From positions 1 to 62,534 of the IMG/VR virus record IMGVR_UViG_3300042987_002787: a DNA stretch of 62,534 bases. One strand, 5' to 3'. Position numbers and translations under genes: made by a program. Below the pieces are notes generated by a model. It worked only from the letters and a program-made list of their open reading frames with translations. It did no database searches and was not told the origin of the DNA. The first letter of the stretch is position 1. Each line of letters opens with the position of its first letter. Shown piece after piece: positions 1,010-57,839 of this stretch. This DNA is from a virus (Duplodnaviria; Caudoviricetes).

Positions 1010-3263
1010 TAGTGTCAATTCTGTATGTGGAATCGGTTGACGAAATAGGCAAGAAAGAAAATTCTTTATTATAATCAACTACTATTATACAGCCTGCGCT
1101 AATGTTGTCAAACAAAATAAGTTTACTCAAAGGAACTTTTATTAATTCATTTATTTTTCGTTGTAAAGGTCTGGCACCTAGTTTTTTGTCGAATCCTTGA
1201 GCAATAAGCTCATCTACCGCTGCTTCAGTTAAACGTATTCTTAGCTGTTTATCAATCAACAGATCATTTATATCAGTAATAAATTTACCTACAATTTTAC
1301 GCATGCTCAATTCATTTAGTTTGTTAAATTTAATTACACCATCTAATCTATTTCTAAATTCTGGAGCAAAATAATTTTTTATTGCCTTGTCATCTTCATC
1401 TGTTTTTTCAAAATTTTGAGTGAAGCCTATTGTATTTTTTTCATTGTCAGCAGCACCTAAATTTGAGGTTAGGATAATTATCGCATTTCTACAACTGGCT
1501 TTTTTACCATTACTGCTGCTTACAATGCCTTCATCCATCATACTTAACAATATATTGCTAACATCAGAATGTGCTTTTTCGATTTCGTCCATTAAAATAA
1601 TACAATTAGGGTTTTTTTCAATGTCGCTAATCAAAAGTCCACCGCCTAAATTACCGTCATCATATCCTACATAACCAGGCGGAGCGCCAATCAGTTTAGC
1701 AATTGCATGTTTCTCCTGATATTCGCTCATGTCATATCTCAACAGTTTCATTCCTAGAGATTCTGACAGTAATTTTGCCAATTCGGTTTTACCTGTTCCA
1801 GTGGGTCCTGAAAACAAAAAACTGCCAATTGGTTTGTTTATTGACTTAAGACCTGCACGACTTACATAAATTTTTTCCAAAACACTGTCCACTGCTCGAT
1901 CCTGACCAAACAGTTTATCTTTAATTTGCTCATCCAAATTGGTTAGAACCTGTGTTTGGGTTACATTGCCAATTTGGTCTTCTGGGATCTTGGTCATGTT
2001 GCTGACAGCAGAAATTACGTCTGCTTTAGTAACTTGCCAGTTCTCTAAATTGTTATACTTGATTTTTAGTTTTGCGCAGCAAGCATCGATTAAATCAATT
2101 GCTTTGTCAGGTAGTTTTTTATCAGTTTGGAAACGCACACTTAAATCTACAGCTGATTCAATTGCTTCATCTGTAACTACACCATCATGAAACTTTTCAA
2201 AATGCCCACGTAAACCAAATAAAATTTCCTTAGCAACTTTTACAGAGGGTTCATCAATAGTCACACGTTGAAAACGTCGCATCAAGGCTCGATCTTTCTC
2301 GAAGCTTTGAGTGTATTCTTCCCATGTGGTTGATGCAATCACTTTAATTTTACCTTTACTCAAAGCCGGTTTGATCATGTTTGAAAAATCTACACTGCTT
2401 TGACTTCCTGCTCCTGCACCACGCATTTGATGTGCTTCGTCAATGAACAAAATTGTTTTGTCCTTGGAGTTTAGTGCGTTAATGATTTCATGAATTTTTT
2501 CTTCAAAGTCTCCACGATATTTTGAGCCAGCTAACAAGCTGCCAATATCTAAATTGTAAACTGTATAGTTTTTCAAATAATCTGGGACATATTCATTTAC
2601 TATAGACAGAGCTAGTCCTTCGGCAATAGCAGTTTTACCAACACCAGGATCGCCAATCATTAACACGTTACATTTGTTTCTTCTTGCCAAGATTTCAATT
2701 ATTTCGCCAGTTTCTATTTCTCTACCGATTACAGGATCAATTTTATTGTTAATGGCTAGTTTGTTAAGATTAGTACAGTAGTGCTCAAGAATTTTATCAG
2801 CCTGAGCTGAATTTACAATGGATTTGTTTGATTCTGTTTTGTACAGTTTATTATATTGTTCAATGAGTTTACCACGTTCAAGTTGATATTTTACAATAAA
2901 ATAATGTGCATAACTGTTTGTTTCGGAATTTATGCTAAGAAACAAATCCATGATTTGAACATGAGTTCGTCCGCTAAACAACACTTGTGTAAACGCTCTG
3001 TTAAATGTGCGTTCGAGTGCATGCGTCTTTTTTGGCTCAATGTTTTCTGCTACTAGATAGGTTTGATTTTCTATGTAGGCGGCAAGATCTGCATCTAGAC
3101 CTTCTATATCAACACCAAAGTTAGTTAAAAACTCTCTAAATGGATTAAATCTAATCATCGAGAGAAAAACATGCTCTAATGTAACATACTCGTGACTATA
3201 ACTTTTTGCAATGTCTATAGCTTCTGAAACAATTAAATCAATTTCTGGATTAGTTTGTAACAT
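975..3263 (-). CDS. clpA: ATP-dependent Clp protease ATP-binding subunit (ClpA-like)
   Basis: Clp-N domain, two Walker A motifs (GDPGVGKT, GPTGTGKT), LFIDEAH, DMSEYQEKH, GAPPGYVG. Confidence 0.93.
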   Translation of the reverse strand: MLQTNPEIDLIVSEAIDIAKSYSHEYVTLEHVFLSMIRFNPFREFLTNFGVDIEGLDADLAAYIENQTYLVAENIEPKKTHALERTFNRAFTQVLFSGRTHVQIMDLFLSINSETNSYAHYFIVKYQLERGKLIEQYNKLYKTESNKSIVNSAQADKILEHYCTNLNKLAINNKIDPVIGREIETGEIIEILARRNKCNVLMIGDPGVGKTAIAEGLALSIVNEYVPDYLKNYTVYNLDIGSLLAGSKYRGDFEEKIHEIINALNSKDKTILFIDEAHQMRGAGAGSQSSVDFSNMIKPALSKGKIKVIASTTWEEYTQSFEKDRALMRRFQRVTIDEPSVKVAKEILFGLRGHFEKFHDGVVTDEAIESAVDLSVRFQTDKKLPDKAIDLIDACCAKLKIKYNNLENWQVTKADVISAVSNMTKIPEDQIGNVTQTQVLTNLDEQIKDKLFGQDRAVDSVLEKIYVSRAGLKSINKPIGSFLFSGPTGTGKTELAKLLSESLGMKLLRYDMSEYQEKHAIAKLIGAPPGYVGYDDGNLGGGLLISDIEKNPNCIILMDEIEKAHSDVSNILLSMMDEGIVSSSNGKKASCRNAIIILTSNLGAADNEKNTIGFTQNFEKTDEDDKAIKNYFAPEFRNRLDGVIKFNKLNELSMRKIVGKFITDINDLLIDKQLRIRLTEAAVDELIAQGFDKKLGARPLQRKINELIKVPLSKLILFDNISAGCIIVVDYNKEFSFLPISSTDSTYRIDTNGYIVLEESLS

Positions 3264-39982: not shown

Positions 39983-40267
39983 TATATATATCTATCAATG
40001 TTTAGTCCTACTGCACTGGCACGTTGAACTAATCTTTGTTCTTTAATACTTTCGCCAAAGGCATATAGTCTTAAGAATTCTGTTTGTTTATCATAATCAT
40101 AATTTCGCTGTAACCTTGTGGCTTCTTGTATGGCCATCAAATGGGCAAGTTCTCTCATTTCCTGCTGGTCAATGTCCTTACGTTTCATGTCCATAAGAAC
40201 CTGCACTCGCTGACCAATCATTTGATAATCATTTAGATATGCATGAGGTACACGATATATAACCATA
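39982..40267 (-). CDS. hypothetical protein (MVIYRVP...)
   Basis: Start moved outside tRNA-Tyr; AGGA SD. Confidence 0.55.
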
Positions 40268-40279
40268 ATATTCCTGAAC

Positions 40280-40364
40280 TGGTGGGGATGGAAGGATTCG
40301 CACCTACTCACCCAAAGGAACGGATTTACAGTCCGCCGCCACTCTCTAACTTAGCCGCATCCCC
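40280..40364 (-). tRNA. tRNA-Tyr(GTA)
   Basis: Class II, CT-GTA-AA. Confidence 0.9.
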
Positions 40365-40799
40365 TTAAAAAATTCTTGCTGTTACGCTCCATCTGTATCT
40401 ATCAGCTTCGATACCTTCAACCGAATGATATGTATCTGCTTTTAAAATATGCCAGCGAAATGGTTCAATTTGATATTGATCTAGCAAATTAAAGTCGTCG
40501 TCCCAAAATCTAGTTACAACATTAGAACCACCTGTATCAATAATATACACAAATTTTGTTTTTGTGTCTATGTCTTTATGACGAGGTATGTCACCGGTCA
40601 TCATTTGAAATGCATAATATATATCTTTACAAATATTTTCCTGTGCCCAAGCATTTAGCTTTTCATTAAACGAGTCAGTCCAATGGTAATTTTCAATAGT
40701 TTCTTTTTTATAAACATCAAGTTTATTCGGAAGATTCTGTATTATCTCCTCCGGAATAGATGGCAAGTTTACGTATTGAATATATCTTGATTTATACAT
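40365..40799 (-). CDS. putative 2OG-Fe(II) oxygenase-fold protein
   Basis: HKD...YHSV...R pattern. Confidence 0.55.
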   Translation of the reverse strand: MYKSRYIQYVNLPSIPEEIIQNLPNKLDVYKKETIENYHWTDSFNEKLNAWAQENICKDIYYAFQMMTGDIPRHKDIDTKTKFVYIIDTGGSNVVTRFWDDDFNLLDQYQIEPFRWHILKADTYHSVEGIEADRYRWSVTARIF

Positions 40800-40805
40800 A
40801 AGTTT

Positions 40806-40879
40806 TGGTGGAGGATAACAGAATCGAACTGTTACGAAGGCCTTGCAAAGGCCCCAGGCTCCCTTTACATCAATCCCCC
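40806..40879 (-). tRNA. tRNA-Ala(TGC)
   Basis: G3:U70, TT-TGC-AA. Confidence 0.92.
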
Positions 40880-40881
40880 AA

Positions 40882-41130
40882 TTATTCTCTTACTTGTTTT
40901 GCATCAACGCACGTTTCGCCTTTGAATACATACACATCAGAGTCTACACGTAGTTGTTCAAATACTTGATTGTTTACACAAATATATGGATCTTTGTGAT
41001 TTTCCATATAAAAGAAAATGCCATAGCCAATACCAGCTAACACCATTAATATTGGTATATATTTTAGATACTTAACAATTTCAGGCATGGCACCTAAAAT
41101 TTGTGGTAAGTTTTTAAGCAATTCTTTCAT
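40882..41130 (-). CDS. single-TM membrane protein
   Basis: TAAATA-N5-ATG; TM helix. Confidence 0.6.
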   Translation of the reverse strand: MKELLKNLPQILGAMPEIVKYLKYIPILMVLAGIGYGIFFYMENHKDPYICVNNQVFEQLRVDSDVYVFKGETCVDAKQVRE

Positions 41131-41144
41131 GCTCGTATTTATAA

Positions 41145-41220
41145 TGGCACACCCAACCGGATTCGAACCGGTGTAACCACCGTGAAAGGGTGGTGTCCTA
41201 GGCCACTAGACGATGGGTGC
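41145..41220 (-). tRNA. tRNA-Glu(TTC)
   Basis: CT-TTC-AC, G73. Confidence 0.92.
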
Positions 41221-41222
41221 TT

Positions 41223-41384
41223 TTATTTTGCTTCTCTACATTCTACTACCAGTTTACTTTTGACAATTCTTAATCTTTGATCCCACACTCGGGCAGATTC
41301 TACACACTTTTGTTCTGTAGCAAATTTATCATAAACTGTGAAATTTTCAGGAAATTGTAACCAAAAAACTAGTATCCAAGTCAT
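41223..41384 (-). CDS. small two-Cys protein (MTWILVFW...)
   Basis: GGAG SD; start moved outside tRNA-Arg. Confidence 0.6.
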   Translation of the reverse strand: MTWILVFWLQFPENFTVYDKFATEQKCVESARVWDQRLRIVKSKLVVECREAK

Positions 41385-41400
41385 TCCAATCTCCCGGTCA

Positions 41401-41475
41401 TGGCACCTCTGGATGGAATCGAACCACCATCGCAAGTTTCGTAGACTCGCATCCTATCCGTTGAACGACAGAGGC
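41401..41475 (-). tRNA. tRNA-Arg(ACG)
   Basis: CT-ACG-AA. Confidence 0.92.
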
Positions 41476-41477
41476 AA

Positions 41478-41636
41478 TATATTAGTAAGTGCTATAGGAC
41501 CAATTTAGGCGTCCACTGCTAAGTGTGCCAAAGCCGCTGTCGGTTATGTTAGGACCCATCCCCGGCCGGGAGTGCCCGCATAGTGAGCACGTCTGCTTAC
41601 GATACCCGTTTTTCATCTATAACACTTACTGATATA
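41478..41636 (-). ncRNA. candidate ncRNA closed by a ~20-bp terminal stem
   Basis: ATATCAGTAAGTGTTATAG...CTATAGCACTTACTAATAT; GC-rich interior. Confidence 0.55.
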
Positions 41637-41646
41637 CTGCAAAATC

Positions 41647-41743
41647 ATATTGAAACACACTAGGGGATTCGAACCGCCTCACTGTCGGCATCGGACAGCA
41701 TTACCACCCGTCGTGCGCCCTTCGGCTTAGTGTGCTTCAATAT
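41647..41743 (-). ncRNA. tRNA-like ncRNA with extended closing stem, no CCA
   Basis: ATATTGAAGCACACTA...TAGTGTGTTTCAATAT; T-arm GG-TTCGAAT-CC; 5-bp stem with 7-nt loop. Confidence 0.6.
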
Positions 41744-41746
41744 AAT

Positions 41747-41933
41747 TGCTCGGGCCACGCTTTTCCACGGTCGCCCCCAAGCTGGAGTTGTTGCCCTGTC
41801 CGAACACTGTTTGGCATATGGCCGACGAAGTGTCCACGCTGCTAGGTTGTCTGCATCTAGTTGCGCTGTCGGTGCCCTAGCCACCGGGATCATATCGTGT
41901 CCCCACGCTACTTTCAGGAAAGTAGTAACCGGA
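41747..41933 (-). ncRNA. candidate structured ncRNA
   Basis: GC-rich, no credible ORF; CTACTTT-CCTG-AAAGTAG hairpin at the 5' end. Confidence 0.45.
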
Positions 41934-41936
41934 ATC

Positions 41937-42200
41937 TTAACTCGCCCAGACTAGTGCAAATGCAACTGCTAGGCCGTTGTTTGCGAATCTATAAGTATCG
42001 CCTGAATCAAAGTAATCATTACCGCAGCGATATCCGTGATCTGTAAACCATTTTACGATTGCACGATCTCTTTCTATCATTTTGTTGCGAACTTTTAATC
42101 TTGCAGCACCAAATTCTGCCGCTTCTGCTTCTTCGACTAGATCGGCAAAAAATGGTTCGCGATCTAACAAAACATTTAAATGCGGATATACTTGTTTCAT
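41937..42200 (-). CDS. hypothetical phage protein
   Basis: AAGGAG SD before MKQVY. Confidence 0.6.
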   Translation of the reverse strand: MKQVYPHLNVLLDREPFFADLVEEAEAAEFGAARLKVRNKMIERDRAIVKWFTDHGYRCGNDYFDSGDTYRFANNGLAVAFALVWAS

Positions 42201-42252
42201 CTGCACTCCTTGATCTAATTTCAAGAGTATAGCACAATACATCTTTTTGGTA

Positions 42253-42391
42253 CACCATATTGAAACACACTCCCAAGGGGCTGTCATTAACCCACTTGTA
42301 ACTTTGTACAACCTGTCGGGTAGCTAGTTCCGACTCTTGTACTCACCGTGAAGTTGGCACGGCAATGACAGAAATGTGCTTCAATATGGTG
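42253..42391 (-). ncRNA. candidate multibranch ncRNA sharing its closing stem with 41647-41743
   Basis: CACCATATTGAAGCACA...TGTGTTTCAATATGGTG; inner CTGTCATT/AATGACAG stem and hairpins. Confidence 0.6.
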
Positions 42392-42468
42392 CCCTGGGAG
42401 GGACTCGAACCCCCACGCTCTCGCACTTGCTCCTAAGGCAAGCGTGTCTACCATTTCACCACCGGGGC
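42387..42468 (-). tRNA. tRNA-Leu(TAG)
   Basis: Class II, CT-TAG-GA. Confidence 0.92.
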
Positions 42469-42566
42469 AATATGCTTATTGTTAATGAACGTGTACTGCA
42501 CTATTTCATTATAATAGCAAAATACATATTTTAGGTCTACCTTTATTTTGTTGCTATTTTGTTAAC

Positions 42567-42642
42567 TGGTAGTAGAGGTCAGACTCGAACTGACGATACA
42601 CACCGTATGAAGGTGCTGCATTGGCCACTATGCTACTCTACC
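42567..42642 (-). tRNA. tRNA-Met/Ile2(CAT)
   Basis: TT-CAT-AC loop, CCA. Confidence 0.85.
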
Positions 42643-42643
42643 A

Positions 42644-42720
42644 TGGTACCCTGTCTTGGATTTGAACCAAGGACTCCCACCTTATCAAGATGGTACTCTT
42701 ACCAACTGAGTTAACAGGGC
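42644..42720 (-). tRNA. tRNA-Ile(GAT)
   Basis: TT-GAT-AA. Confidence 0.92.
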
Positions 42721-42728
42721 ATGCTAAT

Positions 42729-42803
42729 TGGCCGGTCCTGAGAGATTCGAACTCCCGACAGCTGGTTTCGAAGACCAGAACTCTTCCGCTGAGCTAAGGA
42801 CCG
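42729..42803 (-). tRNA. tRNA-Arg(TCG)
   Basis: CT-TCG-AA. Confidence 0.9.
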
Positions 42804-42816
42804 TTAAATATAAAAT

Positions 42817-43950
42817 ATGGCAAATACAAGTAATTACTGTGCTTTACCTTTTAGAGGTATGCAAATATGGACCGACGGATCTTTAAAACCTTGTTGTATG
42901 TACAATCAAGATTTGCATGTTGGTAAAATTTACAATATAAACGAATACAATGAATGGTGGTCTAACGGACTCACAACATTACGAAATAATTTTATAGAAC
43001 AAAAACCTCCGGCAAGTTGTTCGCTTTGTTTTAACAAAACTTTTCAAAATTCAGGAGTGCGTGTAAATGTTAATAACTGGATGGTTAATAATCAAGTTGA
43101 TTTTACTATAAGTGAAACTCCTGAACATATTGATATAACATTCGGAAATGTCTGCAACTTAAAATGTATAATGTGTAGTTCTTTTTCTAGTAGTAAAATT
43201 GAAGCCGAGTATCAACAACACAAGCAAAAATACAACTCAATAGGCATTATTCATCCTGCCATGCCTAAATTAAACAAATGGTGGGAAGATTCAAAAATTT
43301 TAGAGCAAGTATTGCACATAATTTCTAAAGCCAAATACATAAACTTTTCGGGCGGAGAACCGTTATTGACCCCACAAATAGTTGATATGTTGAAAGTAAC
43401 TCCTAAAAATTGTCAAGTTGAAATAAACACCAATTTAACAAAACTTACCGACGAACATATTGATTGTTTAAGGAAATTTGATCTAGCTAGAATAAGTATT
43501 AGCTTAGATGGAGTAGGTCCTCATCATGAATATGTTCGTTATGATTCCAATTGGAGCGAAATAGAAAATAATATTAATAAACTATTTGGCGCCAATATAA
43601 AAAATTTAGAAATCGCTTTTAGTTACATTTTACAACATACATCAATTTATACCTTTCCGAGTTTTTGGAATTATATGAAAGATTTTACTAATAGAATTAG
43701 AATATCCGAAGTTGTTCCTAACACTCACAAAGATAATCTAATGACCATTAACTCTGCTCATCCAACAGATGTATCAAAATTTCAACAGTGGCTTATTCAT
43801 AATCCTAACAAATATTCCAACATTCTAGAAACTTGGATAGACAACTATAAATTTGACCTACAATCTCACAATGAATTTAAACAATATATGTCAACTATCG
43901 ATCAAATTCGTGGATGTGATTTTGTTAAAACTTTCAATCCAAGTTGGTAA
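42817..43950 (+). CDS. radical SAM protein with N-terminal SPASM/twitch-like Cys cluster
   Basis: CALPF...G...PCC...CSLC; CNLKCIMC; SGGEP. Confidence 0.88.
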   Translation: MANTSNYCALPFRGMQIWTDGSLKPCCMYNQDLHVGKIYNINEYNEWWSNGLTTLRNNFIEQKPPASCSLCFNKTFQNSGVRVNVNNWMVNNQVDFTISETPEHIDITFGNVCNLKCIMCSSFSSSKIEAEYQQHKQKYNSIGIIHPAMPKLNKWWEDSKILEQVLHIISKAKYINFSGGEPLLTPQIVDMLKVTPKNCQVEINTNLTKLTDEHIDCLRKFDLARISISLDGVGPHHEYVRYDSNWSEIENNINKLFGANIKNLEIAFSYILQHTSIYTFPSFWNYMKDFTNRIRISEVVPNTHKDNLMTINSAHPTDVSKFQQWLIHNPNKYSNILETWIDNYKFDLQSHNEFKQYMSTIDQIRGCDFVKTFNPSW

Positions 43951-44026
43951 TGGTGCCGACTCCTGGTTACGCTCCAGGCCATTCTGCTCTTCAGGCAGAC
44001 GCTTCCACTAGGTTAGCTTAGACGGC
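43951..44026 (-). tRNA. tRNA-Phe(GAA), atypical T-loop
   Basis: CT-GAA-GA; T-loop AGCGTAA; CCA. Confidence 0.82.
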
Positions 44027-44027
44027 A

Positions 44028-44103
44028 TGGGGTGTCTGACCGGTATCGATCCGGTACTATCGCTTTCACAGAGCAATGTGCAGGCCACTACACCACAGAC
44101 ACC
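44028..44103 (-). tRNA. tRNA-His(GTG)
   Basis: G-1:C73, CT-GTG-AA. Confidence 0.9.
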
Positions 44104-44109
44104 ACTGAA

Positions 44110-44184
44110 TGGTAGGGGATGAGGGATTCGAACCCCCGCATGGCGGAATCAAAATCCGCTGTCTTACCGCTTGACGAATCCCCG
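44110..44184 (-). tRNA. tRNA-Gln(TTG)
   Basis: TT-TTG-AT, unpaired 1:72. Confidence 0.9.
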
Positions 44185-44185
44185 A

Positions 44186-44335
44186 CTAACTTGGTATTAC
44201 TTTTGGAATATATGGAACATTCCTAGGCCCGTGACGCTGTTCAAATAACATACGTGCCTCTTGAAGATCCTTTGCATACACTCGATCTTTAGTATCACCT
44301 TGCGGCGTTCTTACTGTAGTTTCATACATTGGCAT
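44186..44335 (-). CDS. small hypothetical protein (MPMYETTVRTPQG..., 49 aa)
   Basis: AAGGAG SD; manually translated. Confidence 0.6.
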   Translation of the reverse strand: MPMYETTVRTPQGDTKDRVYAKDLQEARMLFEQRHGPRNVPYIPKVIPS

Positions 44336-44386
44336 TACCGTCTCCTTGTACCATATAGAAATACACTCAATAAATGCACTTGTGTA

Positions 44387-44463
44387 TGGTGGGTGCGGTG
44401 AGACTCGAACTCACGACTCTCTGATTAAAAGTCAGATACTCTAACCAACTGAGTTACGCACCC
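44387..44463 (-). tRNA. tRNA-Lys(TTT)
   Basis: CT-TTT-AA. Confidence 0.93.
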
Positions 44464-44616
44464 AGGCGTTTGGGACCGCCGTCCGTCTTATCACTATCCA
44501 TATGTCTCCTTAAAAATATATTTTACATCTATTTTACATTACGGTCAACCATTATTAAAACTGCTATTGTAAAAATTAATACTGTCAAAGCCCCATGGTG
44601 ATCACCCTTTCTTAAA

Positions 44617-45165
44617 TTAATTTAACAAATGTGTTGGTTCCGGTTTAAATCTAAAACTTACCATACGTCTGATATTTGGACCATTTTCTACTGAATGATA
44701 CTCTCTCACATTTACTAGTGTAGGCGAAACAATTTCGTGTTCATCCAACTTGGTTGCATATTTTTCTGAGTAAAAATGTAGGGCGTTATTCTTTTGAAAA
44801 CCTCCGTCCACGGTCACTACATCAATTGGAGCATTTTCTTCTAATTTCCACCAGATCATCTTTGTGCCTTGACAATTGCAAATTGGCCAATTTAGTGCTA
44901 AAAATTTAGGAAACTCTGGTGTACCATCATGATGTATTCGTATACCAGCAAATGGTTGAGAAACATATTCCCTAAAAATTTCTGGATATAAGTCAAGCTC
45001 AACAAATTGACTGTATAACTTAGGAACACGAGTTTTTATTAATTCACAATCAAATACTTTTGTAACTTTTAAATTTGGATTAAACTCTTGAGCAATGTGT
45101 AACAATTGTTGAGTTATTTCCGGCACATAATCAAACTTTAAGTTTTTGTATAAAAACATGTTCAT
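44617..45165 (-). CDS. putative 2OG-Fe(II) oxygenase-fold protein
   Basis: IHHDG...ALNWPI...YHSV.N...R...S.RF. Confidence 0.6.
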   Translation of the reverse strand: MNMFLYKNLKFDYVPEITQQLLHIAQEFNPNLKVTKVFDCELIKTRVPKLYSQFVELDLYPEIFREYVSQPFAGIRIHHDGTPEFPKFLALNWPICNCQGTKMIWWKLEENAPIDVVTVDGGFQKNNALHFYSEKYATKLDEHEIVSPTLVNVREYHSVENGPNIRRMVSFRFKPEPTHLLN

Positions 45166-45171
45166 CCTCGA

Positions 45172-45348
45172 TTATTTTAAAAAAACGCAACCTGCATTGA
45201 CCCGGTAATTGTCAACTTGAACTGTTTTCAATACTTGTTCTTTGGCTACCATGCATTCTTCACGACTGTTAAATTTTGCCTGTATGCTACCGCTACTGGT
45301 CAGAGAGCCAGGCGATACACTAAACAGACTGATTACTAGAACCCACAT
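45172..45348 (-). CDS. small two-Cys protein (MWVLVISLF..., 58 aa)
   Basis: AAGGAGG SD; manually translated. Confidence 0.65.
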   Translation of the reverse strand: MWVLVISLFSVSPGSLTSSGSIQAKFNSREECMVAKEQVLKTVQVDNYRVNAGCVFLK

Positions 45349-45367
45349 ACAGCCTCCTTGTTATATT

Positions 45368-45462
45368 TGGTAGTAGGCCAGGGATTCGAACCCTGTCGTT
45401 CCAGCCCGTCCGGCCAGTCTCCACGGCTTATAAAACCGCGCCGCATACCAATGCTGCCTACC
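45368..45462 (-). tRNA. non-canonical tRNA with TAT anticodon (Ile-like), minimal D-arm, 27-nt variable arm
   Basis: GGTAGGC/GCCTACT-A-CCA acceptor; GCAT-TGGT-ATGC D-arm; TT-TAT-AA; CAGGG-TTCGAAT-CCCTG. Confidence 0.8.
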
Positions 45463-45492
45463 ATTCGCTAACACACTCTGATTTCAAAGTGT

Positions 45493-45591
45493 ATGATTGA
45501 ACAGACTAGTTGCTACGGTGATAGCATGCCTACGGTCGAAGCGGCTGGGATTACAAGGCCCCAATACTTTCTTCTAATCTGCTCAATCATT
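45493..45591 (-). ncRNA. candidate ncRNA closed by a 17-bp imperfect stem
   Basis: ATGATTGAGCAGATTAG...CTAGTCTGTTCAATCAT; both deviations are G:U pairs on the minus strand. Confidence 0.55.
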
Positions 45592-45684
45592 CCTATTTTT
45601 CACACCACACAAGGTGATCCATCCAGGGCTCCGCCCGTTTGGCAATTTATAGTGCTGCCGCGGCCTCGTTCCGCATCACACTGG

Positions 45685-45849
45685 TTAGCGTCGTTTAATT
45701 AGACGGCGCATTCGTTCTGCATCTTCATTTTGCTGACGCAGTCTTTCCATTTTACCTTTAACTAATTGCTCAAGTAACCTATCGTTAAAAACAAAATTGC
45801 GCTCTTCTAATTTTTTTTGAAACGACACGATATCTTGTTCACTTGTCAT
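45685..45849 (-). CDS. small helical protein, first gene after the attenuator (MTSEQDIVSF..., 54 aa)
   Basis: AAGGA SD; manually translated. Confidence 0.6.
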   Translation of the reverse strand: MTSEQDIVSFQKKLEERNFVFNDRLLEQLVKGKMERLRQQNEDAERMRRLIKRR

Positions 45850-45861
45850 CGCTTCCTTTAT

Positions 45862-45898
45862 AAAAACAAAAACCCCAGGGTTTTGAGTCCTGGGGTTT
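45862..45898 (-). terminator. attenuator terminator hairpin
   Basis: AAACCCCAGG-ACTCAAAAC-CCTGGGGTTT-TTGTTTTT. Confidence 0.85.
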
Positions 45899-45920
45899 AA
45901 TAGAATTTAGTATACTACAC

Positions 45921-46040
45921 TTAGGTTCTATAATCCCCCAGAATACGATTACTATCACGTGTAATCATACCCCAATAGGCTGTTAGCCCCGATTCGGGTT
46001 GTGATATAAACGATTTATGTAACTGTACTGTATTCATCAT
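45921..46040 (-). CDS. putative attenuator leader peptide (39 aa)
   Basis: MMNTVQLHKSFISQPESGLTAYWGMITRDSNRILGDYRT*; lies between promoter and terminator; last codons form the antiterminator 5' arm. Confidence 0.7.
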   Translation of the reverse strand: MMNTVQLHKSFISQPESGLTAYWGMITRDSNRILGDYRT

Positions 46041-46047
46041 AGTCTCT

Positions 46048-46076
46048 ATTGTATATTTATTTATCTTTTTTGTCAA
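46048..46076 (-). promoter_or_regulatory. sigma70-type promoter at the head of the tRNA array
   Basis: TTGACA-N17-TACAAT-N7-ATG; the spacer also contains TAAATA twice. Confidence 0.8.
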
Positions 46077-46248
46077 GCGTTCCCCAATTTATTTTCAGCC
46101 ATATTCTTTCATGAACATAATGTAAAACTGTTAAAACAATATTAGCCATAATTGCCCCACTCCATCCGGCCCATATAGCTGTTACCACGGTTGCTATTAC
46201 TCTCCAACAAACTGCTCTTGCCACAGTTCTTTTGTGTGATTCTGTCAA
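46057..46248 (-). CDS. DUF2061-like small membrane protein
   Basis: ESHKRT.A.A..WR..AT...Y.HER.W..I.WG. Confidence 0.72.
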   Translation of the reverse strand: MTESHKRTVARAVCWRVIATVVTAIWAGWSGAIMANIVLTVLHYVHERIWLKINWGTLDKKDK

Positions 46249-46286
46249 TGCGTTCTCCTAAAAAAAAACCCCTTTCGGGGCAAATA

Positions 46287-46682
46287 TTATTTTGTAAGCT
46301 TACCTAACATTCGATATCCTTTTGCTGTTGGATGCACACCATCAGGTGATAGTTCAGGTATATTTATAAAAGTATCGCCATAACTTCTAGCAATCTTTTG
46401 TACTATTTCTTGTTTCTGTGGTTGATTAGCAGGTACGATCCAAAACACTCGATCGGACTTGACACTATGCCTTAGTGCCACTAGCTCTATTTGTGTGTTA
46501 AGTAGTCTATAGTCATTACTGCCCAAACTGATAATTGTAGTCTGGGCAGGTTTAACCTTTCTTATATAGATGTTGTTCCAGTCATGACTGTTAATACCAC
46601 TTTGTGCATAGGTTACACATTCGGTTCTAACTTGGCCTATACCTTTGGCGATACTGTCACCTACTATTAAACACTCTAACAC
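46287..46682 (-). CDS. SGNH/GDSL hydrolase
   Basis: GDSI, LGSND, DGVHP. Confidence 0.85.
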   Translation of the reverse strand: MLECLIVGDSIAKGIGQVRTECVTYAQSGINSHDWNNIYIRKVKPAQTTIISLGSNDYRLLNTQIELVALRHSVKSDRVFWIVPANQPQKQEIVQKIARSYGDTFINIPELSPDGVHPTAKGYRMLGKLTK

Positions 46683-46693
46683 ACTGCCTCCTG

Positions 46694-47302
46694 TTAAGAT
46701 AAAATAAGATTAGGTTGCCCGAAAAAGTCTGCGGTTAAAGTTCTTACTGTACCAACGGGCACTCTTGTGCTATGCGTATAATGAGTATGATCCACACCCA
46801 CAGTCAATTCAGAGGCATTATGCAATGAGTCGATCATGTCTGCAGTTAATTCAAAACGCAGAAAATGTACCGCTGCTGTTTTTAGATCTGTGCTGCGATC
46901 AAGATCTTCATCTGCAATGGCATATACAGGTTGATGTCCTTCGACTTTGATATACACACGGTCTTCAATTCCTTGTAATAGAGACAACTGCTGCGCTCTC
47001 ACCGCAGGATCGCTGTATTCTAGTGTAAGGGTAGCTTTTAGGTTGTTTCCTGAAGGAATAAGCGGATTGTAAGCATCAAGTTCATCTTGAATTCCTTGCT
47101 GACTAAATGTGCGCTCGATTAACAGCATCTCTTGAATTTGATACTGGACTGTAACACGATCTTCAAAATGTAAGGTCATGTTCATACCCAACTTAATCTG
47201 TCTGCGCTTGCGGTGTTCCACAGCCCGGCGTTTAAAATCCGGGCGGTGGGCACTATATTGTTCCAGCGAATATAGGTCTTGTGCAGTCAGCATATTAGGC
47301 AT
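46694..47302 (-). CDS. DUF3501-family protein
   Basis: FE...TV.YQIQEM...E; EL.AYNPLIP; AVHFLRF; adjacent to rubrerythrin. Confidence 0.85.
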   Translation of the reverse strand: MPNMLTAQDLYSLEQYSAHRPDFKRRAVEHRKRRQIKLGMNMTLHFEDRVTVQYQIQEMLLIERTFSQQGIQDELDAYNPLIPSGNNLKATLTLEYSDPAVRAQQLSLLQGIEDRVYIKVEGHQPVYAIADEDLDRSTDLKTAAVHFLRFELTADMIDSLHNASELTVGVDHTHYTHSTRVPVGTVRTLTADFFGQPNLILS

Positions 47303-47729
47303 TCTCTGCGCGATAAGCGTCTAAGGTTTTCTTGAACTTGCCGGCATGGCTGCGTTCTGCTTTAGCCAGTGTATCAAACCAGTCAGCAATTTCGTCGAAG
47401 CCTTCATCTCTAGCATCACGAGCCATACCTGGATACATATCAGTATATTCGTGTGTTTCACCATGGATAGCACTTTCTAGAGCCTGTACGATATCACCAG
47501 CTGGCAAACCAGTTTCTGGATCGCCCGAACCACCGGCAATTAGATATTCCATGTGACCATGTGCATGACCTGTTTCACCTTCTGCGGTATGACGGAAGAT
47601 GTTGGCTACGTCAGTTGCACCAGCAATATCGGCCATGTTTGCGAAATACAAATAACGACGATTGGCTTTTGATTCACCTGCAAAAGCATCTTTCAAATGC
47701 TGTTCTGTTTTAGTTCCTGTAATTTTCAT
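47295..47729 (-). CDS. rubrerythrin (ferritin-like, no rubredoxin domain)
   Basis: [15 protein letters not shown]; E..HA.GH; ET.EY..MYP; AE..HA. Confidence 0.92.
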
Positions 47730-47910
47730 TTTTATCTCCTTATTGAAAAAGTGTTGCATTGCACTATATTATATATGACTAGTAGGCCTATTGTCAACTC
47801 GTTTTTAATAGATTTTTCATGAATATTTTTTTATTGTTCCAATAGAAAAAATCTAAGTCCGTGTTGTCCAATAAATATTTGTGCTTAAGGCTTTCAATTA
47901 TGGATGAACA

Positions 47911-49584
47911 ATGAATCGATATGATGAACTTGAAATATTAATTAAAAAATTTACACGAGCGATACCAGATACCGAAGAATACAATAGCAGATTACAAGAA
48001 GAACTAGAAATTATCGCAAAGCTGGGTTTTGCCAAACATTTTCTTCGTGTTAGAGAAATACTAGATCTTACAAAAGACATTCCACATATTACTAGAGGAT
48101 CAGCAGGTTCAAGCCTGATATGCTACCTTATGGGCATCAGTGATGTAGATCCCATACAGGAACGCATACCATTATCACGGTTTATGAATCCAAAGCGTGA
48201 CGACCTACCAGATATTGATCTAGACTTTCCGCACTGGCAGCAGGAAACAGTGATGAATAGAATATTCAAAAGATGGCCAGGACAGAGTGCTCGTGTATCA
48301 AACTATGTAATGTATAAAGAAAAGTCAGCGGTACGCGAAGCAGCCAAACGCTATGGTGCCAAGGGCAGATTAAAACGCAATTTTAAATTGGCAGATGTGG
48401 TACCTGCTGAATATGTTGGTGAAGCAGAACGACTAGCAGACAAACTGTTAGGAAAGAAACGCTGTATAAGCAAACACTGTGGCGGCATACTGATCTTTGA
48501 TCGTGCGGTACCTAAGAGTTTAATTAACGGCGAGAATCAAATCTTGTTAGACAAATACGAGATAGAAGATCTAGAACATTTCAAGATTGATATCCTGGCT
48601 AATCGAGGATTAAGTCAGCTATGGGAGATTGATCAAAGAGATCTATTAGACTATCCTGAAACTGATGAGGCGACTGCTGCACTACTGAGCAGAGGTGATG
48701 TACTAGGTGTTACACAGGCAGAATCGCCTGCCATGAAACGACTATTTAGAGCTATACGCCCCCAAAGTCGCGCAGACTGTGTGTTAGGTACAGCACTTAT
48801 TCGACCTGTGGCCACACAAGGTCGTCGTAGAGCAAGTGCATTCCAAGATTGGACCAAAGACAATCTGAGCGAAACAATTGTATTTGAGGACGATGCTATT
48901 GAATTGATCGGAGAAATATTAGGCTGTGACCAATACGAAGCAGACATGTGGCGTAGGGCATTTGCTAAGAAGAACGAAGAGAAGATGTTCGAGTTCATGC
49001 AAAAGGTCGGGGATCATCCTCGTAGAGATGATGTGTTGTTGGCCTTACGTGAATTGAGTCACTTTGGCCTGTGTCGTGCCCATGCTATCAACTTAGGTAG
49101 ATTGATTTGGGCACTGGCTTACCAAAAAGCACACAATCCAGAACGGTTCTGGCGTGCAGCACTTAAACATTGCCAAGGTTCGTATGCTAGATGGGTGTAT
49201 TGGCAAGAAGCCAAATTGGCAGGAGCTGTTCCCGCTGTAGGTGAAGGCGGTGAAGTAGCAGACTTGTTACAGGAAGGTCGCTGGCGTAGTGGTAGATTTA
49301 TCCCGGTATGTCAAGAAATTCGTAAACCAGGCCAAGTGGAGTTTTGCGGATTAGTGGCTAACTATCGTGTGTTTAAATCGGGACCAAAAGAATATATTAC
49401 CTTTGCTACACTAGGCACAGGCAATGGCCGGTACCTTGATGTTGTTCTTCCGCATGCCACAAGTTTTCAGGAACAGCCTATCTTGTGGGGAACGGGCAAG
49501 TTGGGGTATAAAAATAATTCAGAATATGTTACAGTATATCGTAGTAAGAAGATGAAACTCTCTGATATTGCACACATAACATGA
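47911..49584 (+). CDS. compact family C DNA polymerase (DnaE-like, no PHP domain)
   Basis: TRGSAGSS, RFMNP.R..LPDIDLDF, SKHCGG, KIDIL, FGLCRAHA. Confidence 0.85.
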   Translation: MNRYDELEILIKKFTRAIPDTEEYNSRLQEELEIIAKLGFAKHFLRVREILDLTKDIPHITRGSAGSSLICYLMGISDVDPIQERIPLSRFMNPKRDDLPDIDLDFPHWQQETVMNRIFKRWPGQSARVSNYVMYKEKSAVREAAKRYGAKGRLKRNFKLADVVPAEYVGEAERLADKLLGKKRCISKHCGGILIFDRAVPKSLINGENQILLDKYEIEDLEHFKIDILANRGLSQLWEIDQRDLLDYPETDEATAALLSRGDVLGVTQAESPAMKRLFRAIRPQSRADCVLGTALIRPVATQGRRRASAFQDWTKDNLSETIVFEDDAIELIGEILGCDQYEADMWRRAFAKKNEEKMFEFMQKVGDHPRRDDVLLALRELSHFGLCRAHAINLGRLIWALAYQKAHNPERFWRAALKHCQGSYARWVYWQEAKLAGAVPAVGEGGEVADLLQEGRWRSGRFIPVCQEIRKPGQVEFCGLVANYRVFKSGPKEYITFATLGTGNGRYLDVVLPHATSFQEQPILWGTGKLGYKNNSEYVTVYRSKKMKLSDIAHIT

Positions 49585-49877
49585 AATCAAGAATACACCT
49601 TTACCCACACACAGGACCAGGTAGTCGCGGATATATTGTAGCTGAACGATCTGCACTAAGATCACTTGCCAGACATCTTGAAGATGCTGCTCGCGGTCTA
49701 GCCGGACTTGAAACTGTTAAATGTTATAGCTCCGATGGTCACGAATACGAACTAGTTATAGCATGTGATGTCTCAGAAGAAGAGTGGCAAAACTTACCAG
49801 GACCCAATGAAAAAAGTTCAGATCCCGGCAAGTTAGCCGTTGTTCAAACCTGGGACGAGTTTAGAAAAACAGACTAG
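49581..49877 (+). CDS. hypothetical protein coupled to the DnaE-like gene
   Basis: ORF directly abutting the polymerase stop. Confidence 0.6.
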   Translation: MKSRIHLYPHTGPGSRGYIVAERSALRSLARHLEDAARGLAGLETVKCYSSDGHEYELVIACDVSEEEWQNLPGPNEKSSDPGKLAVVQTWDEFRKTD

Positions 49878-50066
49878 TTATTTTTTCTTAAAGGAACTAC
49901 ACATCATTTCAAATTCTGCCTGTTTGGAATTAACTTGTCCATAACTGGCGTTTGGATTGCGCTCTCTATATGCGGCTTTTTCTCTTTCAATGCAAGCATC
50001 ATATTCATTGGAACATCCTGCCAGGCTCATCAAAACCAACAACACAATAACAAAAACTTGCAACAT
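49878..50066 (-). CDS. small lipoprotein
   Basis: Lipobox LAGC. Confidence 0.6.
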   Translation of the reverse strand: MLQVFVIVLLVLMSLAGCSNEYDACIEREKAAYRERNPNASYGQVNSKQAEFEMMCSSFKKK

Positions 50067-57085: not shown

Positions 57086-57129
57086 TGAAAACTCCTAGTG
57101 TATTATTGATTATTTATCAACGCTTTGTA

Positions 57130-57436
57130 ATCAAAACCAGCCACTTCTGTTACCGAGCAGGCTGGGCCATCTCTGAGTCTAGGTTTAGCTTAAGCAGCTA
57201 AACGAACCTCAAACAGCTCATCATTGGCTGCATTTGTTGTTTTGCTTGATTTACAGTCATCGCCTACTGTGTTGTCCATATCCTTACTCATTGCCCTGTC
57301 GAAACCAAATTCAGGCCCATCAAAAGTATATTATGCCACGCTCTGAACCTGGACTCTTAGTAATATACTTTTGGTGGACCTGCCCGGGGTCGAACCGGGG
57401 TCCAGAACACCTTTCAATCAACTTCATACAACAATT
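57130..57436 (-). ncRNA. ssrA: tmRNA, circularly permuted (two-piece)
   Basis: Acceptor piece ends GGTTCGACCCCGGGCAGGTCCACCA (57372); coding piece starts GGGCCTGAATTTGGTTTCGAC (57318); G3:U70; tag AANDELFEVRLAA* at 57190-57231; outer ends approximate. Confidence 0.9.
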
Positions 57437-57839
57437 TAAATTACTTCTTTAAGAACCAAATCATGTCTAAGTATTTTTGAAGATGTTTTTCTTGAAATGA
57501 TTTAGCCCAACTTGGCTGCGGTAAATTCCAACCTACAAATGCACCTACTACGATCCAAAAAATTGTTTCTAACATTGTATGCTCCTTTGTTTGTTTACAT
57601 TAGAAAACCATACAAAGCACACCACAGTTCAAGAAGAACATAATATCCAGCATAGGCCAAAATACATGTCGCAATCAAATCAACCACTAACCAAATATCA
57701 TTTATTTTCATCGTCTTTGTTTTCTTTGATCCATTCGTAATAGATTAGGGCCAACGGTACGGATATACTACCAATGAGTAAAACTCCAAGCAAAAAGCCT
57801 ACAATAAAATACAAACGGTTTACTTCATCCACCTAATAT

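Follow-up and report, generated by a model that had tools for sequence, protein, structure and literature searches.

A module at 46076-45862 on the minus strand of a 62,534-nucleotide stretch of viral DNA (Caudoviricetes; IMG/VR record IMGVR_UViG_3300042987_002787, the whole of which is called the window here) comprises a promoter and a 39-codon ORF whose stop codon falls inside an antiterminator hairpin, with an intrinsic terminator overlapping this hairpin, and 27 tRNA genes lie downstream of the module on the same strand (Table 1). We propose, with a probability of roughly 0.7, that the module is a ribosome-mediated (leader-peptide) transcription attenuator that heads the phage tRNA array and senses shortage of any charged tRNA. 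As part of this same reading, the leader ORF would by design hold one or a few codons per amino acid, usually with both halves of the split codon boxes. Judging from the comparison of related sequences, such an all-amino-acid leader with its RNA switch occurs in many uncultured giant phages and probably turns on the phage tRNAs at any tRNA shortage. The first-pass annotation had interpreted the window in this way; the comparative predictions of that interpretation came out, but the leaderless start that it included is found in only about one-third of the family and the window's own leader, taken alone, is unremarkable (P of about 0.07).

Table 1. Features in and around the module of the window.
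Feature	Position	Strand	Basis
DUF2061-like upstream gene	46248-46057	-	Pfam 20.9 bits, under the 23.1 cutoff
Promoter, TTGACA + TACAAT	46048..46076	-	Consensus scan, 11/12 positions; conservation
Leader ORF, 39 codons + TAA (stop 45923-45921)	45921..46040	-	ORF list; conserved open frame
Antiterminator hairpin (predicted)	45890..45941	-	MFE fold, -18.5 kcal/mol (fold of 45941-45889); covariation
Intrinsic terminator (predicted)	45862..45895	-	Fold, -12.5 kcal/mol
ORF2, 54 aa, RBS AAGGAAG	45685..45849	-	ORF list; conserved position
Second structured RNA element (ends approximate)	45565..45682	-	86 distinct copies; helices with compensatory changes
tRNA array, 27 tRNAs with 25 anticodon types for all 20 amino acids	30909..45462	-	Relaxed ARAGORN; Rfam

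The promoter consists of TTGACA (46076-46071), a 17-nt spacer with GATAAATAAA, and TACAAT (46053-46048), and it overlaps the 3' end of the DUF2061-like gene. As a class, promoter-like matches show no excess (29 in 40000-50000, with 28.7 expected), and the promoter is credible because it is conserved, not because of the consensus scan. It is kept in relatives whose upstream genes differ and its spacer motif occurs only once in the 62.5-kb window. The first ATG (46040) lies 7 nt past the -10 hexamer, and the AGAGACT between them contains nothing that matches a Shine-Dalgarno sequence. The promoter and the ATG spacing thus stand as first annotated, but the leaderless layout that had been deduced from them is not general: the spacer motif with a -10-like hexamer 7-10 nt before the ATG is present in 30 of the 89 family members described below, and in the other members the 5' UTR is longer and has AAGGA-like motifs. 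The DUF2061-like gene, which has 31 relatives in viral contigs, was considered as a part of the module and rejected, because nucleotide similarity to the window ends at this gene in all 31 relatives and the sequence beyond it differs.

The leader ORF encodes MMNTVQLHKSFISQPESGLTAYWGMITRDSNRILGDYRT. Its second ATG, at 46037, corresponds to the start codon that is invariant in the family. On re-reading of the sequence, residues 2-12 are indeed 11 different amino acids, and 19 of the 20 (all but Cys) have appeared by codon 29. With independent draws from the proteome composition of the phage group, at least 19 amino acids are reached in 29 codons with P = 0.0042, but over all 39 codons with P = 0.073. 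Taken alone, the amino-acid diversity of the window leader is within chance and at most suggestive. Its codons reach 23 of the 25 downstream anticodon types by our reading with standard wobble, missing only Cys-GCA and Arg-TCG, the same two exceptions as had been noted before.

Near its end the ORF enters the antiterminator. The 5' arm of this predicted hairpin, CUGGGG (45941-45936) followed by AUAGAA (45931-45926), lies within codons 33-38 and pairs with the 3' arm UUCUAU (45905-45900) and CCCCAG (45895-45890), giving the helices CUGGGG/CCCCAG and AUAGAA/UUCUAU, topped by an apical stem AGUGU/AUACU that takes in the last base of the stop codon. The terminator is formed by CCCCAGG (45895-45889), a 9-nt loop, CCUGGGG (45879-45873) and the U-run UUUUUGUUUUU (45872-45862). 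It is absent from the consensus terminator scan because that scan allows loops of up to 8 nt. The CCCCAG segment is common to the antiterminator 3' arm and the terminator 5' arm, and the MFE folds (-18.5 against -12.5 kcal/mol) bear out that the two structures, as had been proposed, are alternatives. In the full-length fold of the window leader the terminator is present and the antiterminator 5' arm is paired with an upstream segment of the ORF instead; because this pairing can form, early stalls might not all yield read-through.

Downstream of the module, the RBS of ORF2 begins about 22 nt past the terminator stem, and ORF2 is thereby the first gene to require read-through. In 52 of 89 family loci this place is taken by an ORF of 49-65 aa; neither ORF2 nor the neighbouring small ORFs belong to a Pfam or PHROG family. 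Between ORF2 and the first tRNA sits a second structured RNA element with the pattern AGUG..GGAACGAGGCC..GCACUAUAAA..GGGCGG..GGAUG..AAAAA and no Rfam match. An HDV-like ribozyme was considered for this element and set aside, as the order of strands does not fit (a by-eye comparison with that topology). The array begins with an Ile-UAU-like tRNA (45462-45368), and small ORFs are interspersed among its tRNAs. Relaxed ARAGORN finds 26 of these and Rfam one more at 43954-44026, whose anticodon loop was read as Phe-GAA, which confirms the earlier count of 27 same-strand tRNAs with 25 anticodon types. The consensus scan gave no promoter-like site on the minus strand between 46048 and 44558. A promoter-like site at 44548 (10/12 match) may allow distal tRNAs to be transcribed without passing the attenuator. 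Six riverine metatranscriptome runs contain small shares of the stretch. Contigs of four of these six align only to the terminator, to 45568-45676 (one run) and to 45365-45465, and the terminator alignments span 33-44 nt (45853/45864-45896) with flanks that belong to relatives. Because they are assembled, these contigs reveal neither ends nor strands, and DNA may have contributed to them; all that follows is the presence of module relatives in RNA libraries. They are not counted as support, and no meaning attaches to the parts left uncovered.

Scanning viral contigs with the terminator sequence alone gave at least 119 stretches, with 100 distinct elements among the matches listed. A same-strand tRNA array follows 82 of these 100 listed elements, beginning 87-1655 nt downstream, with no tRNAs on the opposite strand. 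Of the remaining 18, six are terminator matches unrelated to the family, and 12 belong to the family but have no more than 839 nt of downstream sequence available. The arrays comprise about 20-40 tRNAs, up to 41. At 27 loci 20 or more tRNAs lie downstream, and several of these arrays have tRNAs for all 20 amino acids. From the same listed matches 89 family leaders of 30-51 codons were analysed, and the order of parts in the family is promoter, open frame, hairpin and terminator, small ORF, second structured RNA and same-strand tRNA array. Without exception, 25-34 nt separate the leader stop codon from the terminator that follows. An independent set was obtained from loci found through the downstream RNA element, which is unrelated to the terminator: of 56 new sites, 33 (GC 0.34-0.45) have a terminator and an ORF that stops 21-30 nt upstream of it. 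All family counts are to be read as counts of related sequences and not of independent events; identity clusters, column shuffles and a neighbour-conditioned test reduce this problem but do not remove it.

The RNA switch is predicted throughout the family. In the nascent-RNA MFE fold the terminator C-run pairs with an upstream G-run, forming the antiterminator, in 89/89 leaders and in 33/33 of the independent set, and the competing terminator uses the same C-run, so the folding of both conformers came out as the first-pass annotation had anticipated. The median antiterminator has 21 bp, a free energy of -25 kcal/mol (terminator -12.5) and a z-score of -4.4 against dinucleotide shuffles. As RNAalifold on the whole MAFFT alignment recovered the terminator only, the antiterminator was analysed per sequence and on a shorter alignment. 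When sequences were aligned without reference to structure, 79.4% of cells are paired, and sliding the partners lowers this to 53.5% or less. Covariation scores 0.174, compared with 0.120 after shuffling, and none of 500 shuffles exceeded the real value. Two basal antiterminator pairs show double changes from C-G to U-A. In the independent set, terminator stems vary with compensation and the antiterminator 5' arm changes jointly with both terminator arms, as in UAGGGUUCU with AGAACCCUGG and CCAGGG. The antiterminator 5' arm falls within the final 5-10 codons, 3-24 nt upstream of where the stop codon ends, and the stop codon itself is inside the hairpin. The end of the leader is therefore placed such that a terminating ribosome would cover this arm. 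Full-length folds are near isoenergetic (median difference 1.2 kcal/mol), with 61 of the 89 in the antiterminator, 27 in the terminator and one in another conformation.

The content of the leaders is the second line of evidence. All 20 amino acids occur in 71 of the 89 leaders and 19 in a further 12 (terminator-found set, among the matches listed), where independent draws would give all 20 in about 3% at 46 codons; in the independent set 23 of 33 leaders have all 20 and six have 19. Among 3219 six-frame small ORFs of 35-63 aa in the loci, 180 contain all 20 amino acids and every one of these is a family leader. Each amino acid is used about 1-5 times per leader with no codon runs, and Cys, His, Trp and Tyr mostly once. 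Trp keeps to one alignment column in 85/89 leaders. Cys, present exactly once in 75% of leaders and absent from 6%, is spread over 20 different columns, and His, present once in 80%, over 11. Clustering at 70% identity leaves a member with all 20 in 30 of 40 clusters, and shuffling within columns yields 10.8 +/- 2.9 complete leaders (maximum 21) against the 71 observed. In the neighbour test, residues shared with a neighbour were fixed and those that had diverged were redrawn at random from the composition of the family itself: 89 of 116 are complete at 30-60% identity, with 10.9 expected, and 65 of 75 at 60-80% identity, with 26.0 expected. Completeness is maintained while the peptide diverges. 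The conservation upstream of tRNA arrays that had been predicted, in leader length, in near-complete coverage and in hairpin covariation despite peptide divergence, is thus present.

Coverage extends to the codon level, as synonymous resampling showed. Both Leu boxes are used in 74/89 leaders (59.3 +/- 3.4 expected), both Arg boxes in 67/89 (44.4 +/- 3.9) and Ile ATA together with ATY in 75/89 (44.4 +/- 4.3), and all 24 decoding classes are present in 51/89, with 12.4 expected and a maximum of 23. At the median, no new amino acid is added after codon 36 of 46, and in 84% of leaders the last addition precedes the G-run at codon 39. If a strict ribosome footprint of 12 nt is assumed, all 20 amino acids lie upstream of the zone in which a stalled ribosome covers the 5' arm in only 17/89 leaders, 19 of them in 40/89 and 18 in 24/89, with Glu usually at the border. 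These observations bear on the strongest alternative, in which the module would be a general sensor of transcription-translation coupling that reads through upon any scarcity or slowing of ribosomes, for example during host shut-off or with translation inhibitors, and in which completeness would be functionally minor. The geometry of antiterminator and terminator would answer any ribosome lag, and the nascent RNA favours the antiterminator without a ribosome in all 89 leaders. Still, such a sensor leaves unexplained why completeness is kept during divergence and why leaders use both halves of the Leu, Arg and Ile boxes more often than synonymous choice alone would give, and we consider it unlikely.

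Two further alternatives deny the leader a role as an attenuator. The ATG is invariant in 90/90 aligned sequences and the leader frame is open in 89/89, whereas frames +1 and +2 have stops in 177 of 178 cases. One of the two is a functional micropeptide, with the hairpin and U-run as its plain terminator and with downstream genes expressed through leaky termination or from other promoters. The main family indeed has a common peptide motif (..AKQAGFMPTYWS..NDRTPE..), and the fixed Trp column would also fit. However, this motif coincides with predicted RNA hairpins, the rare residues shift between columns, and the leader is unlike an ordinary protein in that substitutions are even over codon positions 1, 2 and 3 (220, 200 and 245), with no excess at the third. 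Pairwise gap lengths within the ORF are multiples of three in 2589 cases and not in 5678, counts that carry no information because the alignment splits gaps. The stop codon moreover keeps its place within the hairpin against which the terminator competes, ORF2 follows this terminator closely with no promoter-like site of its own, and the leader has no Pfam or PHROG match, so that a micropeptide seems quite improbable. Least probable of all is a structured non-coding RNA (an sRNA or a ligand-sensing riboswitch) that ends at its own terminator and in which the open frame is incidental: the conserved, covarying helices and the several hairpins within the ORF would suit it, but not the invariant ATG, a frame open in every leader when only one of 178 other frames is, the composition and codon-box signals that exist at the coding level only, or the lack of an Rfam family (the best match, His_leader, scores 19.8 bits against a threshold of 49).

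In the attenuator that we favour, RNA polymerase and the first ribosome would traverse the leader together. A ribosome that keeps pace would reach the end of the ORF and occupy the antiterminator 5' arm, leaving the C-run to pair with the terminator 3' arm, and transcription would stop. If the ribosome lags at a codon upstream of the 5' arm, where charged tRNA is scarce, the antiterminator would form first and the polymerase would continue through ORF2 and the second RNA element to the tRNA genes. Such a circuit would be self-limiting, since the phage array encodes tRNAs for all 20 amino acids: with the missing tRNA back in supply, the leader would again be translated quickly and attenuation would resume. 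Possible triggers are a codon-usage mismatch, loss of host tRNAs in infection and cleavage by host anticodon nucleases, and we infer that tRNA shortage or anticodon nucleases would induce it. With slightly better than even odds, the leader could serve as a gauge of tRNA supply at the level of translation: nearly all decoding classes would be represented by one codon each in this test ORF, and the speed at which it is translated would set the share of the phage tRNA set that is transcribed, providing homeostatic feedback as well as a counter to tRNA loss or cleavage.

If true, the attenuator would represent a new sensing logic, in which one cis element responds to whichever member of the whole tRNA pool is most limiting. 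The expression of large phage tRNA arrays would thereby receive its first regulatory explanation, and these arrays would be linked to tRNA-targeting host defences. At about 200 nt, the module would be a compact part for sensing translation capacity. It predicts that omission of any one amino acid raises read-through and that deletion of the leader codon for this amino acid abolishes only that response.

Database searches placed the module outside known families. Public phage records gave no match to the window region, in near and distant modes, or to the main-family leader, and for the largest window protein they yielded only a partial match at 26.5% identity, in one Sinorhizobium jumbo phage; these records offer no relative in culture. 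The main-family pattern had 0 matches in prokaryote genomes, and for the leader no Rfam family was found. The parts of the literature returned by full-text searches described no all-amino-acid leader or attenuator ahead of phage tRNA arrays.

The closest known systems are leader-peptide attenuators such as trpL, hisL, leuL, pheL, thrL and ilvL, which precede enterobacterial amino-acid biosynthesis operons. Their leaders contain codon runs for one amino acid (two or three for thr and ilv) and control its synthesis; to our knowledge, no leader-peptide attenuator has been described that senses more than three amino acids or that controls anything other than the synthesis of those it senses. Like the trpL and hisL types, the module has start signals with a short leader ORF, an intrinsic terminator and an antiterminator that excludes it, and a ribosome at the leader end would mask the 5' arm. 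Unlike them, it has no run of regulatory codons for one amino acid: about 1-3 codons of all 20 amino acids are present, and the genes that would be regulated are phage tRNAs. The Histidine operon leader model (RF00514) stays below its gathering threshold in 45500-46300 (19.8 bits against 49, E = 1.1).

Leader ORFs of resistance genes are a second group. In the ermC, vmlR and mexXY leaders, drug-bound ribosomes at particular peptide contexts trigger the switch. They resemble the proposed attenuator in that a ribosome held on a short leader ORF alters the downstream RNA structure and turns genes on; none of them is known to contain every amino acid or to control tRNA genes. In mycobacteria, leaderless polycysteine short ORFs are described as Cys-responsive attenuators (bioRxiv 10.1101/834739). 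These share a leaderless short first cistron with about one-third of the family, theirs being an amino-acid-responsive attenuator, but they are bacterial, respond to a single amino acid through consecutive Cys codons and do not stand at tRNA genes. Lastly, T-box elements bind one specific uncharged tRNA directly and need no translation. In the window the T-box model (RF00230) has no match that reaches the gathering threshold, and within 45500-46300 it has none even at E <= 10. The module and the T-box both couple tRNA charging, in our case putatively, to terminator read-through ahead of translation-related genes; in contrast to the T-box, the module has a conserved ORF and would sense through the ribosome, all tRNAs at once.

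Every sequence element that the first-pass annotation had assigned to a proposed attenuator at the head of the tRNA array (promoter, short ORF, two hairpins and same-strand tRNAs) is present in the window. The terminator and the 3′ arm of the antiterminator have CCCCAG in common, and the last base of the leader stop codon falls within the antiterminator apical stem. In our own reading of codons and tRNA calls, the leader touches 23 of the 25 anticodon types with ordinary wobble, as had been stated. Its diversity was weighed against chance. Under a null drawn from the amino-acid composition of the phage group's large ORFs, at least 19 types by codon 29 is improbable (P = 0.004), whereas at least 19 types in 39 codons is less so (P = 0.073), and promoter-like matches around the module were no denser than chance in a scan of the region. 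The window leader alone is therefore not very remarkable, and the case rests on comparison. CheckV puts the completeness of the 62,534-base window at 16%, which makes it a piece of a very large phage genome.

Features of the attenuator module and other features of the window
Feature	Position	Strand	Details
Promoter TTGACA-N17-TACAAT	46076-46048	-	11/12 positions match
Spacer motif GAYTAAATAAA	46054-46070	-	conserved in family promoters
Leader ORF, 39 codons	TAA 45923-45921	-	ATG 7 nt past promoter; no Shine-Dalgarno match
Antiterminator hairpin	45941-45890	-	-18.5 kcal/mol; 5′ arm = codons 33-38
Terminator CCCCAGG-N9-CCUGGGG-UUUUUGUUUUU	45895-45862	-	-12.5 kcal/mol
ORF2, 54 aa	45849-45685	-	strong ribosome-binding site
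Second structured RNA	45565-45682	-	about 115 nt
tRNA array	45462-30909	-	27 tRNAs, 25 anticodon types, all 20 amino acids
First tRNA of array	45368-45462	-	95 nt, long variable arm, anticodon UAU (Ile) by ARAGORN
Promoter-like site	44548		
Permuted (two-piece type) tmRNA gene	57128-57478	-	105 bits, betaproteobacterial tmRNA model; 126 bits, permuted tmRNA model
ClpB/ClpA-like double AAA+ protein	975-3263	-	Pfam
DnaE-type DNA polymerase III alpha subunit, piece	47911-49584	+	Pfam

Searches with the small ORF and the 54-aa ORF yielded seven distinct loci, all with the same promoter, ORF, hairpins, terminator and ORF2 and with differing upstream genes. A scan of viral contigs for the terminator sequence, blind to the ORF, returned at least 119 stretches and at least 100 distinct elements. 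Removal of six unrelated matches, four elements cut by locus ends and one mis-cut element from the 100 listed left 89 leaders, which were started at the ATG invariant in their alignment. Same-strand tRNAs follow 82 of the 100 listed elements, the first at 87–1655 nt and up to 41 within the available DNA; opposite-strand tRNAs were found downstream of none of the 100, and upstream tRNAs in few. The other 18 comprise the six unrelated matches, with no tRNA in 2.9–11.9 kb downstream, and 12 family members for which no more than 839 nt of downstream sequence was available. In 27 loci at least 20 tRNAs lie downstream, and several of these span all 20 amino acids (e.g. 41 tRNAs with 30 anticodons). 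A second, independent ascertainment used a 16-nt motif of the downstream RNA element; of the 79 distinct sites that had sufficient upstream DNA, 23 had the old terminator and 56 were new. Thirty-three new sites (GC 0.34–0.45) carry the module, with an ORF stop 21–30 nt 5′ of a terminator; 23 of these 33 leaders contain all 20 amino acids and six contain 19. The remaining 23 sites were scored as lacking the module: 22, of GC 0.46–0.69, look like chance matches, and at one viral locus (L211, GC 0.42) the terminator is present though missed by the search criteria. Anatomy, conservation and the link to tRNA arrays are shown for the family, and the predicted persistence of leader, diversity and hairpin pairing at the array heads of related phages despite peptide divergence was borne out. 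This DNA is present in freshwater and aquatic metagenomes; the element pattern was absent from 185,579 prokaryote species genomes in a pattern search, and the element was not found among deposited phage genomes. The terminator hairpin (CCCCAGGAYU..CCCUGGGG and a U run) also follows unrelated genes in loci L052, L122, L139 and L120, which have neither leader ORF nor downstream tRNAs; the first three contigs carry GCGATCGC motifs.

The leader frame is open in all 89 listed members, while the alternative two frames are stop-interrupted in 177 of 178 cases, and the stop codon always lies 25–34 nt 5′ of the terminator. In close, gap-free pairs, substitutions are spread evenly over codon positions 1/2/3 (220/200/245), so the peptide sequence as such does not evolve under ordinary purifying selection. 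The ORF is kept, though not as an ordinary protein. The listed leaders have 30–51 codons (median 46), and 71 contain all 20 amino acids (19 in 12, 18 in two, 17 in three and 13 in one), a state expected for about 3% of 46-codon ORFs under independent draws. Among 3219 small ORFs (35–63 aa, six-frame) in the loci then in hand, 180 contained all 20, and all 180 were these leaders. Cys occurs exactly once in 75% of leaders (absent in 6%) and is spread over 20 alignment columns; 80% of leaders have a single His, over 11 columns. Shuffling residues within columns left 10.8 ± 2.9 complete leaders (maximum 21 in 2000 shuffles) against 71 observed. At 70% identity, 30 of 40 clusters had a complete member. 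When residues shared with a neighbour were fixed and diverged ones redrawn from the family composition, 10.9 of 116 complete leaders were predicted and 89 observed for neighbours at 30–60% identity, and 26.0 of 75 against 65 at 60–80%. Completeness is thus regained while the peptides diverge.

Resampling synonymous codons of the 89 listed leaders at genome usage gave a further comparison. Both Leu boxes are covered in 74 leaders (resampled 59.3 ± 3.4), both Arg boxes in 67 (44.4 ± 3.9), ATA and ATY (Ile) in 75 (44.4 ± 4.3) and all 24 decoding classes in 51 (12.4, maximum 23). Coverage of both Ser boxes (85; 80.4 ± 2.5) was not distinctive. The excess in the other classes points to tRNA species, and not amino acids only, as the sampled units.

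The two hairpins had been described as mutually exclusive, and folds of both conformers fit this. In nascent RNA from the ATG to just 5′ of the terminator 3′ arm, the C-run pairs with the upstream G-run in 89/89 listed leaders, and the terminator 5′ arm is paired upstream in 33/33 modules of the second set. Median values for the antiterminator in the first set are 21 bp and -25 kcal/mol, compared with -12.5 kcal/mol for the terminator, and the hairpin region beats all 40 dinucleotide shuffles in stability in 83 of the 89 listed (median z -4.4). At two pairs of the basal helix GGGGUCC/GGACCCC, C-G has been replaced by U-A through double changes, in 7 and 16 sequences. A three-helix model applied to a plain MAFFT alignment had 79.4% of cells paired compared with at most 53.5% with slid partners, and its covariation score (0.174) was exceeded by none of 500 shuffles. 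Terminator stems of the second set vary (CCCUGG/CCAGGG, CCCUGAGA/UCUCAGGG, CCCCGG/CCGGGG, CCCUAAG/CUUAGGG, among others), and the 5′ arm of the antiterminator covaries with them (UAGGGUUCU with AGAACCCUGG, UGGGGUGU with ACACCCC, GGGGUCUG with CAGACCCC). Among the full-length minimum free energy structures of the listed leaders, 61 show the antiterminator, 27 the terminator and one another fold; the two states are nearly isoenergetic.

A probable leaderless start had also been proposed. About a third of the leaders (30/89) appear leaderless-like, since the promoter lies 7–10 nt before the ATG and there is no Shine-Dalgarno match; the rest have longer 5′ UTRs. The same number of listed members carry GAYTAAATAAA beside a -10-like hexamer, 7–10 nt 5′ of the ATG. 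This motif occurs once in the 62.5-kb window and could be an operator or supply multi-frame stop codons ahead of the leader.

ORF2 begins about 22 nt past the terminator. Counterparts of 49–65 aa with the motif ..HTLTxEQxxKLIxDKxERA.. stand in the same place in 52 of the 89 listed loci, and no Pfam or PHROG family matched. The stretch between ORF2 and the tRNA array is non-coding and conserved, and the second structured RNA follows the attenuator (or ORF2) and precedes the first tRNA. The 86 distinct copies include those in loci L056, L085, L093 and L157; the RNA was found within 1200 nt 3′ of the terminator in 65 of the 89 listed loci and has no Rfam match. An outer stem AGUG/CACU surrounds GGG-AACGNGR-CCC, single strands CACUAUAAAC, GGGCGG, GGAUG and AAAA are conserved, and the distal stem has CG/GC/AU/UA exchanges. 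The first tRNA, class-II-shaped with a UAU anticodon, is unusual; an RNA-library contig spans it. The tmRNA gene lies upstream of the leader and is therefore outside its control; its model match is a hint that the host may be a betaproteobacterium. A DUF2061-like upstream gene was rejected as part of the module, as its 31 relatives precede other things; in three loci (L016 3267–3662, L018 1345–1740, L029 3769–4242) what comes after such a gene is a permuted tmRNA gene in place of the leader module.

We propose, with a probability of roughly 70%, that the leader is a pan-tRNA-sensing attenuator. A ribosome abreast of RNA polymerase would reach the last codons and cover the 5′ arm, the C-run would then pair with the terminator 3′ arm, and transcription would end. 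If the ribosome were late at any earlier codon, the antiterminator, as the stronger hairpin, would form before the terminator, and transcription would run on through ORF2, the second RNA element and the tRNAs; read-through would yield the ORF2 protein first. Since tRNAs for all 20 amino acids are encoded in the array, the circuit would be a closed loop, in which shortage would cause read-through, more tRNA and fast leader translation, and hence attenuation. The promoter-like site at 44548 may feed distal tRNAs without the attenuator. Most of the remaining probability goes to a less specific coupling sensor. The full amino-acid set is normally reached by codon 36 of 46, and in 84% of leaders this is ahead of the G-run, which begins the 5′ arm near codon 39; under a strict 12-nt footprint all 20 types lie safely 5′ of the 5′ arm in 17 of the 89 listed leaders, and 19 types in 40. 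In the window the antiterminator 5′ arm has an alternative partner in an upstream ORF segment, and position-dependent sensing and a classical 1:2-type protector are both possible.

The phage element is no T-box and matches no Rfam family. It would work like the enterobacterial leader-peptide attenuators and has their short leader ORF, terminator, mutually exclusive antiterminator and stop-codon placement, but lacks their defining codon run for one amino acid and, unlike them, would regulate tRNAs. Full-text literature searches returned no similar element, and we regard the pan-tRNA-sensing candidate as a variant of the leader-peptide attenuators.
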